Assembly (NCBI GenBank): GCA_964631415.1
Contig: CAZVZC010000007.1
Coordinates: forward strand, 1-60,232
Direction of reading: 5' to 3'
Origin: an uncultured archaeon
GTDB taxonomy: Archaea > Asgardarchaeota > Thorarchaeia > Thorarchaeales > Thorarchaeaceae
Length of the DNA: 60,232 nucleotides
Part shown: one piece after another, positions 56,277 through 56,507 of the stretch
Numbering within the stretch: the stretch's first letter is position 1
How the letters are laid out: every line of letters begins with the position of its first letter
Program-made: the position numbers and the translations under genes
The notes under the pieces: model-generated
What the model was told of the DNA's origin: nothing
Databases searched by the model: none
The model's input: the letters and a program-made list of their open reading frames with translations, nothing else

Positions 56277-56321
56277 ATGTCGGTTCCAGATCCAACAGGT
56301 CCAGATCCAACCCCGTGGTGA
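56277..56321 (+). CDS. 14-aa micro-peptide MSVPDPTGPDPTPW, copy 1
   Basis: GGAGG 10 nt before ATG; TGA stop; followed by hairpin CTGCGG/CCGCAG. Confidence 0.75.
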   Translation: MSVPDPTGPDPTPW

Positions 56322-56462
56322 AAGAAACGCCTGCGGGTGAACCGCAGCAGAGAGGATGAAACGATTGAGAATAGATGACAAAACACAGAGCATCGCCAAC
56401 TGCATGATGTGGAGAAAGGAGTTCGATGAGTTGGCAAGCGAATCAATGGAGGAGAACAAAAG

Positions 56463-56507
56463 ATGTCGGTCCCAGATCCAACAGGTCCAGATCCAACCCC
56501 GTGGTAA
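56463..56507 (+). CDS. 14-aa micro-peptide MSVPDPTGPDPTPW, copy 2
   Basis: GGAGG 10 nt before ATG; differs from copy 1 only by GTT/GTC and TGA/TAA. Confidence 0.75.
   Translation: MSVPDPTGPDPTPW

Follow-up and report, generated by a model that had tools for sequence, protein, structure and literature searches.

The window analysed here, a stretch of 60,232 nucleotides from a genome whose relatives are Thorarchaeota (Asgard), contains two hidden 14-codon genes for an identical peptide. Judged from sequence comparison, both are real genes under protein-level selection and are members of an undescribed gene set. The peptides are probably (with a probability of about 0.64) ligands of a divergently encoded 477-aa double-Lrp regulator, which would control the shared promoter and further targets. 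A signalling ligand was among the roles offered in an earlier note on this DNA. As regards a ligand, this role is supported because the micro-ORFs pair with the regulator and because a complex model docks the shared tail of the peptides in its pocket; binding itself is a prediction, and signalling between cells is only a possibility.

Both micropeptide genes lie on the plus strand and are defined by the sequence and by comparison with 60 relatives. Copy 1 is at 56277–56321 with its SD at 56262–56266 (whole feature, 56262–56321), and copy 2 is at 56463–56507 with its SD at 56448–56452 (56448–56507). On re-measurement, the two units are identical at 43 of 45 nt. The differences, at unit position 9 (Val) and position 44 (stop, TGA/TAA), are both silent, and GGAGG is located exactly 10 nt 5′ of both ATGs, as the earlier note had described. 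The note had also claimed that similarity collapses past the stop. Contrarily, the repeat runs on for 88 nt at 84% identity, with approximately 68% over the 25 nt that follow the stop, indicating that the duplicated unit comprises the SD, the ORF, and a spacer. The small hairpins reported behind the ORFs (CTGCGG/CCGCAG and TTGCG/CGCAA) both fold in the window but are not a family trait, since plain A-rich spacers take their place in several relatives. Likewise, the PDPT tandem inside the peptide is present in this species but is particular to it.

The high DNA identity between the two units could be explained by a neutral recent duplication or by an assembly artefact without a product. However, the two-copy layout with an identical 186-nt period is also found in L021, another species of the same genus, and a contig from an unrelated sequencing run covers 55975–56497. 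Hence, an assembly duplication is ruled out. The occurrence of the same layout in independent genomes and runs, together with the conservation in 60 of 60 relatives and the silent-site bias described below, refutes the neutral explanation as well, and we give practically no credence to either. All four genomes of the window's genus have two copies, which are far closer to each other than to those of other species. This similarity points to concerted evolution or to shared selection on both copies. Contigs from RNA libraries of three studies span the peptide operon; since the runs were selected for matching this stretch and could contain DNA, these contigs are not proof of expression.

The comparison with relatives was made on the 60 genomes in which the flanking genes ORF-A and ORF-C (see below) are on a single contig. 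In every one of them (60/60), the gap between ORF-A and ORF-C contains SD-led ORFs of 11–16 codons ending in Pro-Trp/Phe/Tyr-stop, one in 53 genomes and two in 7, when an aromatic end and Pro among the last four positions are demanded. Shuffled gaps gave 4 qualifying ORFs in 3600 (0.1%), and thus the presence of the micro-ORFs is not due to chance. Pro occupies position −2 in all 74 micropeptides and position −4 in 56, while Asp or Glu is found chiefly at −3 or −5, with Glu at −3 in 44 of the 74. Thr is not conserved. The peptides are 11–16 aa in length and consist of 30% Pro and 20% Asp plus Glu, and their genes use all four Pro codons and all three stop codons. In the last five codons, pN is 0.36 and pS is 0.67, whereas the preceding five codons have no such bias, suggesting that selection is located on the tail. 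Between tandem copies in two genomes, 9 of 12 codons differ, with 9 silent changes and no replacement. Homologous short ORFs with silent-site bias are thus present in relatives. The proposal that these are translated micro-genes under selection, missed by gene callers, is backed by their family-wide occurrence, the conservation of SD and start, and the silent-site bias; translation is predicted.

A six-frame scan of the genome gave one further notable tail of the same type, 140 nt upstream, in an ORF stopping at 56137. This third gene (ORF-A, 56000–56137, plus strand) and the link to the divergent regulators were absent from the earlier note. ORF-A encodes 45 aa with a moderately hydrophobic middle and an invariant Cys, and its tail, P-P-C-E-D-P-x-P-F-stop, is the same acidic-Pro-aromatic ending as in the micropeptides. 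Its SD, GGAGGTG (55987–55993, plus strand), forms invariant alignment columns. The start codon, 6–8 nt after the SD, is ATT, ATC, or ATA in 56 of 56 genomes, and is ATC at 56000 here. The GTG within the SD was rejected as the start, being out of frame in 7 of the 56 genomes (spacing of 7 or 8 nt). Since pN is far below pS in ORF-A and its silent sites vary as freely as those in ORF-C, ORF-A is regarded as a protein gene. A few relatives (L077, L084–L086, and L089) are without a detectable ORF-A or its SD. Searches of Pfam, NCBIfam, and the ESM Atlas gave no family for ORF-A, and no homology to ORF-C was detectable. A scan of the genome for other ATH starts gave no convincing case. The ATH start presumably lowers the translation of ORF-A. 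The conserved ATT/ATC/ATA start makes ORF-A a clear-cut natural example of archaeal non-AUG initiation.

ORF-C (56553–56810, plus strand), which always lies downstream of the peptide gene, was defined by comparison and by a model. It encodes 85 aa predicted to form a helix and three strands (pLDDT 82). Of the 76 genomes of the family, 69 have it, and it has its own strong SD, 45 nt further on. The predicted fold is weakly Roadblock-, longin-, or PAS-like, but the matches to MglB, Ragulator, TRAPP, and PAS proteins (E 0.07 or worse, Z of 5.6 or less, rmsd 3.9 over 61 residues) are not significant. No family for ORF-C was found in Pfam, NCBIfam, or the ESM Atlas. A likeness of ORF-C to the first helix of the regulator was also considered, and profile comparison gave no support for it. 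In one genus (L024, L026, L029, L050–L059, L068, and L074–L083), the gap from ORF-A to the single peptide gene is 120 nt longer and contains extra SD-like words and inverted repeats; a degenerated second copy or an RNA element might account for the added length.

In the absence of eIF5A, ribosomes slow down at Pro-Asp motifs. The ORFs could be considered to act in cis on the ribosome, as Pro/Asp-rich, aIF5A-dependent stalling sensors that tune ORF-C or downstream genes, with the non-AUG start of ORF-A sensing initiation fidelity. The Pro content of 30% and the invariant ATH start are consistent with such action. However, no conserved attenuator-like structure was found, though the gap aligns poorly and may contain local hairpins: over ORF-A and the following gap, the consensus fold has −0.44 kcal/mol, no compensatory pairs, and a mean z of −0.6 to −1.2. 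Furthermore, ORF-C has a strong SD of its own, the same core is found in secretion-type long forms in other families, and cis action leaves the pairing with the regulator's loop (see below) unexplained. We judge this explanation to be distinctly improbable.

The regulator preferred here as the receptor of the peptides is encoded on the minus strand at 53087–54520 (start codon approximate). The prediction that this 477-aa protein is a peptide receptor is based on its model, Foldseek, the complex model, and synteny. The model (pLDDT 90) is composed of an extra N-terminal helical domain of 110 aa and two Lrp units. The best Foldseek matches are NirDL and Lrp/AsnC proteins (E 1e-6 to 1e-3 for NirDL and archaeal Lrp proteins), so that the wHTH and RAM-domain fold of Lrp/AsnC is recognised by Foldseek, with Pfam HTH_24 just over the cut-off. 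No TPR family was found in the regulator in Pfam or NCBIfam, and the model is an alpha/beta tandem Lrp. Next to it on the minus strand, at 54576–55658, a 360-aa wHTH/Lrp-type paralogue is encoded, which has neither the N-terminal domain nor, at its C-terminus, the Gly-Ser ligand loop. Its Pfam HTH matches are below the cut-off, and it is homologous to the 477-aa regulator (E 4e-6). We infer that the paralogue is a likely partner subunit of the regulator.

The divergent promoter region (55679–55835) was recognised by conservation. It contains the words TGTTTAG (55679–55685) and TATTAT (55830–55835), found in 17 and 23, respectively, of 32 dereplicated promoter regions. These two conserved AT-rich words are candidate TATA boxes. 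A conserved operator palindrome was looked for across genera in the divergent region and was not found. The gene order is constant in the relatives examined: the 477-aa and 360-aa genes on the minus strand, followed by ORF-A, the micro-ORF or micro-ORFs, and ORF-C on the plus strand, usually with an MFS gene. The latter (57030–58466, plus strand; Pfam MFS_1 and synteny) encodes a transporter that is a candidate target or exporter. It is downstream in nearly all Thorarchaeota, is absent from that place in L040, and is replaced by other neighbours beside the module in other Asgard families.

A complex of three chains, the 477-aa regulator, ORF-C, and ORF-A, was modelled. The folding tool does not accept a peptide as short as the 14-mer, and ORF-A therefore served as a stand-in ligand. 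The model score was 0.82, and that of the best of three controls was 0.01; the fold of ORF-A itself is uncertain. Among solved complexes, 58 of 80 reached the score mark used, as did 2 of 110 mismatched pairs, a calibration that holds only roughly for a three-chain job. The runs agreed in at least 41% of contacts, and the partner pLDDT was at least 44. The modelled interface consists solely of ORF-A residues 35–45, that is, the shared tail, in the regulator cavity. The model places the tail inside the central cavity, flanked by the two Lrp ligand domains, with the N-terminal helical domain as a cap and the Asp residue on loop 445–449. Gly445 of this loop is kept in 32 of 32 peptide-paired homologues outside Thorarchaeota but in 4 of 20 unpaired paralogues, where the classes were set by eye and the unpaired proteins belong to few clades, so that these are kin and not 52 independent cases. 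In Thorarchaeota, the pocket is somewhat more conserved than the rest of the protein (0.65 vs 0.57, p 0.03), while across families the pocket is not significantly above the rest (p 0.15). Covariation between peptide and pocket residues in 49 Thorarchaeota gave no clear signal; one of four tests had p 0.04, uncorrected. Residues 70–77, a loop in the N-terminal domain of the regulator, form a ligand-like Pro-x-Asp/Asn-Pro stretch lining the modelled pocket, and this loop might be a lid or an internal competitor.

The peptides might also be docking-motif mimics that bind ORF-C, as a Roadblock/longin-like protein, or another cell protein, in the manner of the acidic-Pro-Phe tail of bacterial SSB; a mimic of the SSB tail was one of the earlier note's suggestions. 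ORF-C is located behind the peptide gene in nearly every locus, and the Thorarchaeota tails are acidic-Pro-aromatic with a free C-terminus. However, in the control in which the regulator was replaced and ORF-C was present, the score was 0.00 and the interface was lost. In addition, no bacterial SSB was found in the 85% complete genome, and long frames ending in Pro-aromatic are not in excess genome-wide (16 of 3540). The aromatic residue is often not C-terminal in peptides outside Thorarchaeota, and one type of locus in Hermodarchaeia has separate regulators opposite the peptide gene and ORF-C. Docking mimicry is thus unlikely, and mimicry of the SSB tail in particular is not clearly supported.

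The best fold match, the sirohaem decarboxylase NirDL, raises another explanation, in which the Lrp-fold protein is an enzyme, as are AhbA/B and NirDL, and the peptide is its substrate, or else an enzyme encoded elsewhere modifies the peptide as a RiPP precursor. The modelled site corresponds to the catalytic cavity of AhbA/B (PMC4145669), and the invariant Cys in ORF-A also speaks for this explanation. On the other side, among regulator sequences the HxYxR catalytic motif is found in only 2 of 50, 0 of 52, and 0 of 18, identity to NirDL is 10%, and both HTH domains are retained. The 11–16-aa forms have no leader-core design, and no conserved modifying enzyme is nearby in more than 60 loci. 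A RiPP precursor, another role proposed in the earlier note, thus finds no support, since Thr is not conserved and the module is not accompanied by a modifying enzyme, although a distant one is conceivable; Pfam and NCBIfam gave no RiPP precursor family for ORF-A or ORF-C. A role as a substrate has, in our estimate, a low probability.

The pairing on which the ligand reading relies is also found beyond Thorarchaeota. Full-length homologues of the 477-aa regulator are present in six further families, namely, Hermodarchaeia, Atabeyarchaeia, Baldrarchaeia, Asgardarchaeia, and two more. Where the upstream regions were read, 32 homologues outside Thorarchaeota face a Pro-rich micro-ORF, in differing neighbourhoods. 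ORF-C-like genes, remote homologues located beside the regulator, are found in the same families (profile match to ORF-C with a probability of 78.5, E 1.7e-5), one family having the halves of the module on two contig ends. The pairing of regulator, Pro-rich micropeptide gene, and ORF-C is therefore kept across seven Asgard families. Because the neighbours differ between families, the regulator, the peptide, and ORF-C are considered to be the travelling unit, and the second regulator and the MFS gene local additions. With these queries, the majority of the remaining families in the phylum, among them the two largest of those sampled, gave no homologues of the regulator or ORF-C.

At four loci (L164, L230, L180, and L184), the encoded forms are 40–52 aa long: their start is basic, a strongly hydrophobic stretch comes next, and Ala-Asp precedes a core of 9–13 aa. 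By hydropathy, their leaders look like a Sec signal; alternatively, the hydrophobic stretch could be a membrane anchor. The 19-residue mean is 2.5–2.9 in these forms and 1.44 in ORF-A, whose hydrophobic stretch is weak. One long form occurs among short-form relatives of the same genus, suggesting that a leader can be gained or lost.

Several variants of the locus were observed. In Hermodarchaeia (L180, L181, L183, L190, and L223–L228), the module is split: of two regulators in tandem, one is opposite the peptide gene and the second is opposite the ORF-C-like gene, and the Gly loop is kept only by the peptide-facing one. Full-length regulator paralogues without a facing peptide gene are found in other Thorarchaeota (L157–L162, L169, and L176) and in Atabeyarchaeia (L172 and L175); some of them retain the Gly loop and could be orphan receptors. 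In L163, L164, L165, L170, and L171, all outside Thorarchaeota, ORF-C is followed by a gene for 95–120 aa, of two unrelated-looking types. Look-alike double-Lrp clusters are present in Bathyarchaeia and Nitrososphaerota. Elsewhere in the window, a 191-aa protein (30648–31223, plus strand) begins like a signal peptide and has, close to its end, the near-invariant F-D-P-P-x-x-G-[DNE]-P-G-P-P. Its gene is directly upstream of another double-Lrp gene (31269–32414, plus strand) in 8 of 8 loci checked, and the protein is multi-copy in many Thorarchaeota. The two genes are possibly a second form of the logic that joins a Pro/Asp motif to a double-Lrp protein.

The following mechanism is proposed. The short Pro-rich peptides from the micro-ORFs would serve as ligands of the 477-aa regulator, their tail (an acidic residue, Pro, and an aromatic residue) being seated in its central cavity as modelled. 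Binding would shift the DNA-binding state of the regulator at the shared promoter, which would in turn feed back on the peptide operon and act on other targets. ORF-A may be a second, weakly translated long form for the same pocket, owing to its non-AUG start, and is possibly membrane-routed or opposite in effect. Doubling of the micro-gene would raise the peptide dose, and ORF-C may be an accessory.

The 14-mer has no export signal, and action of the leaderless peptide inside the producing cell is the simpler reading. The leader-bearing forms in other families, however, suggest that release and re-uptake of the peptide are possible, and several class-5 peptide-binding proteins, candidate peptide importers, are encoded in the genome. 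A wider reading is gene-encoded peptide communication in Asgard archaea, independent of bacterial RRNPPA, with export by Sec in the long forms and another route in the leaderless ones, re-import, the double-Lrp receptor, and lineage-specific codes; in Thorarchaeota, ORF-A and the micropeptide would tune one receptor. The long forms and the importers fit this reading, and the absence of a leader from the 14-mer counts against it; we regard it as tentative and somewhat doubtful.

The question at stake is peptide signalling by archaea close to eukaryotes. A 2025 count gives three described cases of true archaeal quorum sensing, with one gene shown to take part (PMC12240190). None of the three uses a gene-encoded peptide with a known receptor. 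In the literature on Asgard and archaeal peptide signalling, small ORFs, and Lrp, where most subscription journals were outside the scope, no description of the module was found. With the ligand, the receptor, and the predicted contact residues named, and the 14-mer being synthesisable, archaeal peptide signalling becomes testable in vitro without culture. Even if the peptide stays inside the producer, control of an Lrp-fold regulator by a micropeptide of its own would, if true, be a type of regulation for which we found no precedent.

The regulator resembles Lrp/AsnC proteins in its wHTH and RAM-type ligand domain, here in a tandem fusion. The known effectors of Lrp/AsnC are single amino acids (PMC4145669), whereas the ligand modelled here is a gene-encoded peptide, located in the central cavity with the extra 110-aa helical domain as a cap. 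The tandem Lrp architecture and a central cavity opened to accommodate a large ligand are shared with AhbA/B and NirDL; in AhbA/B, an Lrp-fold enzyme, the substrate sirohaem is bound in the same cavity, which the HxYxR motif faces (PMC4145669). Unlike these enzymes, the regulator is without HxYxR, has approximately 10% identity and a score far below the NCBIfam cut-off, and has no haem genes nearby.

Leaderless communication peptides (LCPs; the RopB-SIP clan) are likewise encoded by an ultrasmall ORF divergent from the receptor gene, and the mature peptide has no secretion signal, so that in these bacterial systems a leader is not required (PMC10518010). However, LCPs are hydrophobic peptides of 8–10 aa with TPR receptors, while the Asgard peptides are hydrophilic, 11–16 aa in length, and 30% Pro, with a candidate receptor of the Lrp fold. 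In the RRNPPA systems of Bacillota and phages (Rap-Phr, Rgg-SHP, NprR-NprX, PlcR-PapR, PrgX, and AimR-AimP), a cytoplasmic HTH regulator similarly adjoins, and is often divergent from, a tiny peptide gene. Such an adjacent peptide gene is found here in 60 of 60 Thorarchaeota loci and in 32 loci of other families. Long forms with a short core behind a leader, which is putative here, and sequences varying between lineages also recur in both. The secretion signal with cleavage site of RRNPPA propeptides is absent from the 14-mer, weak in ORF-A, and suggested by hydropathy in the four long forms elsewhere. RRNPPA receptors bind the peptide via TPR repeats (bioRxiv 10.1101/2023.09.19.558401). The candidate receptor here has a double-Lrp fold without TPR, its predicted ligand is an acidic, Pro-rich peptide, the module includes ORF-C as a third conserved gene, and the host is an archaeon. 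The Asgard module would thus follow an RRNPPA/LCP-like logic but is not a member of that group, because its candidate receptor is built without the TPR core.
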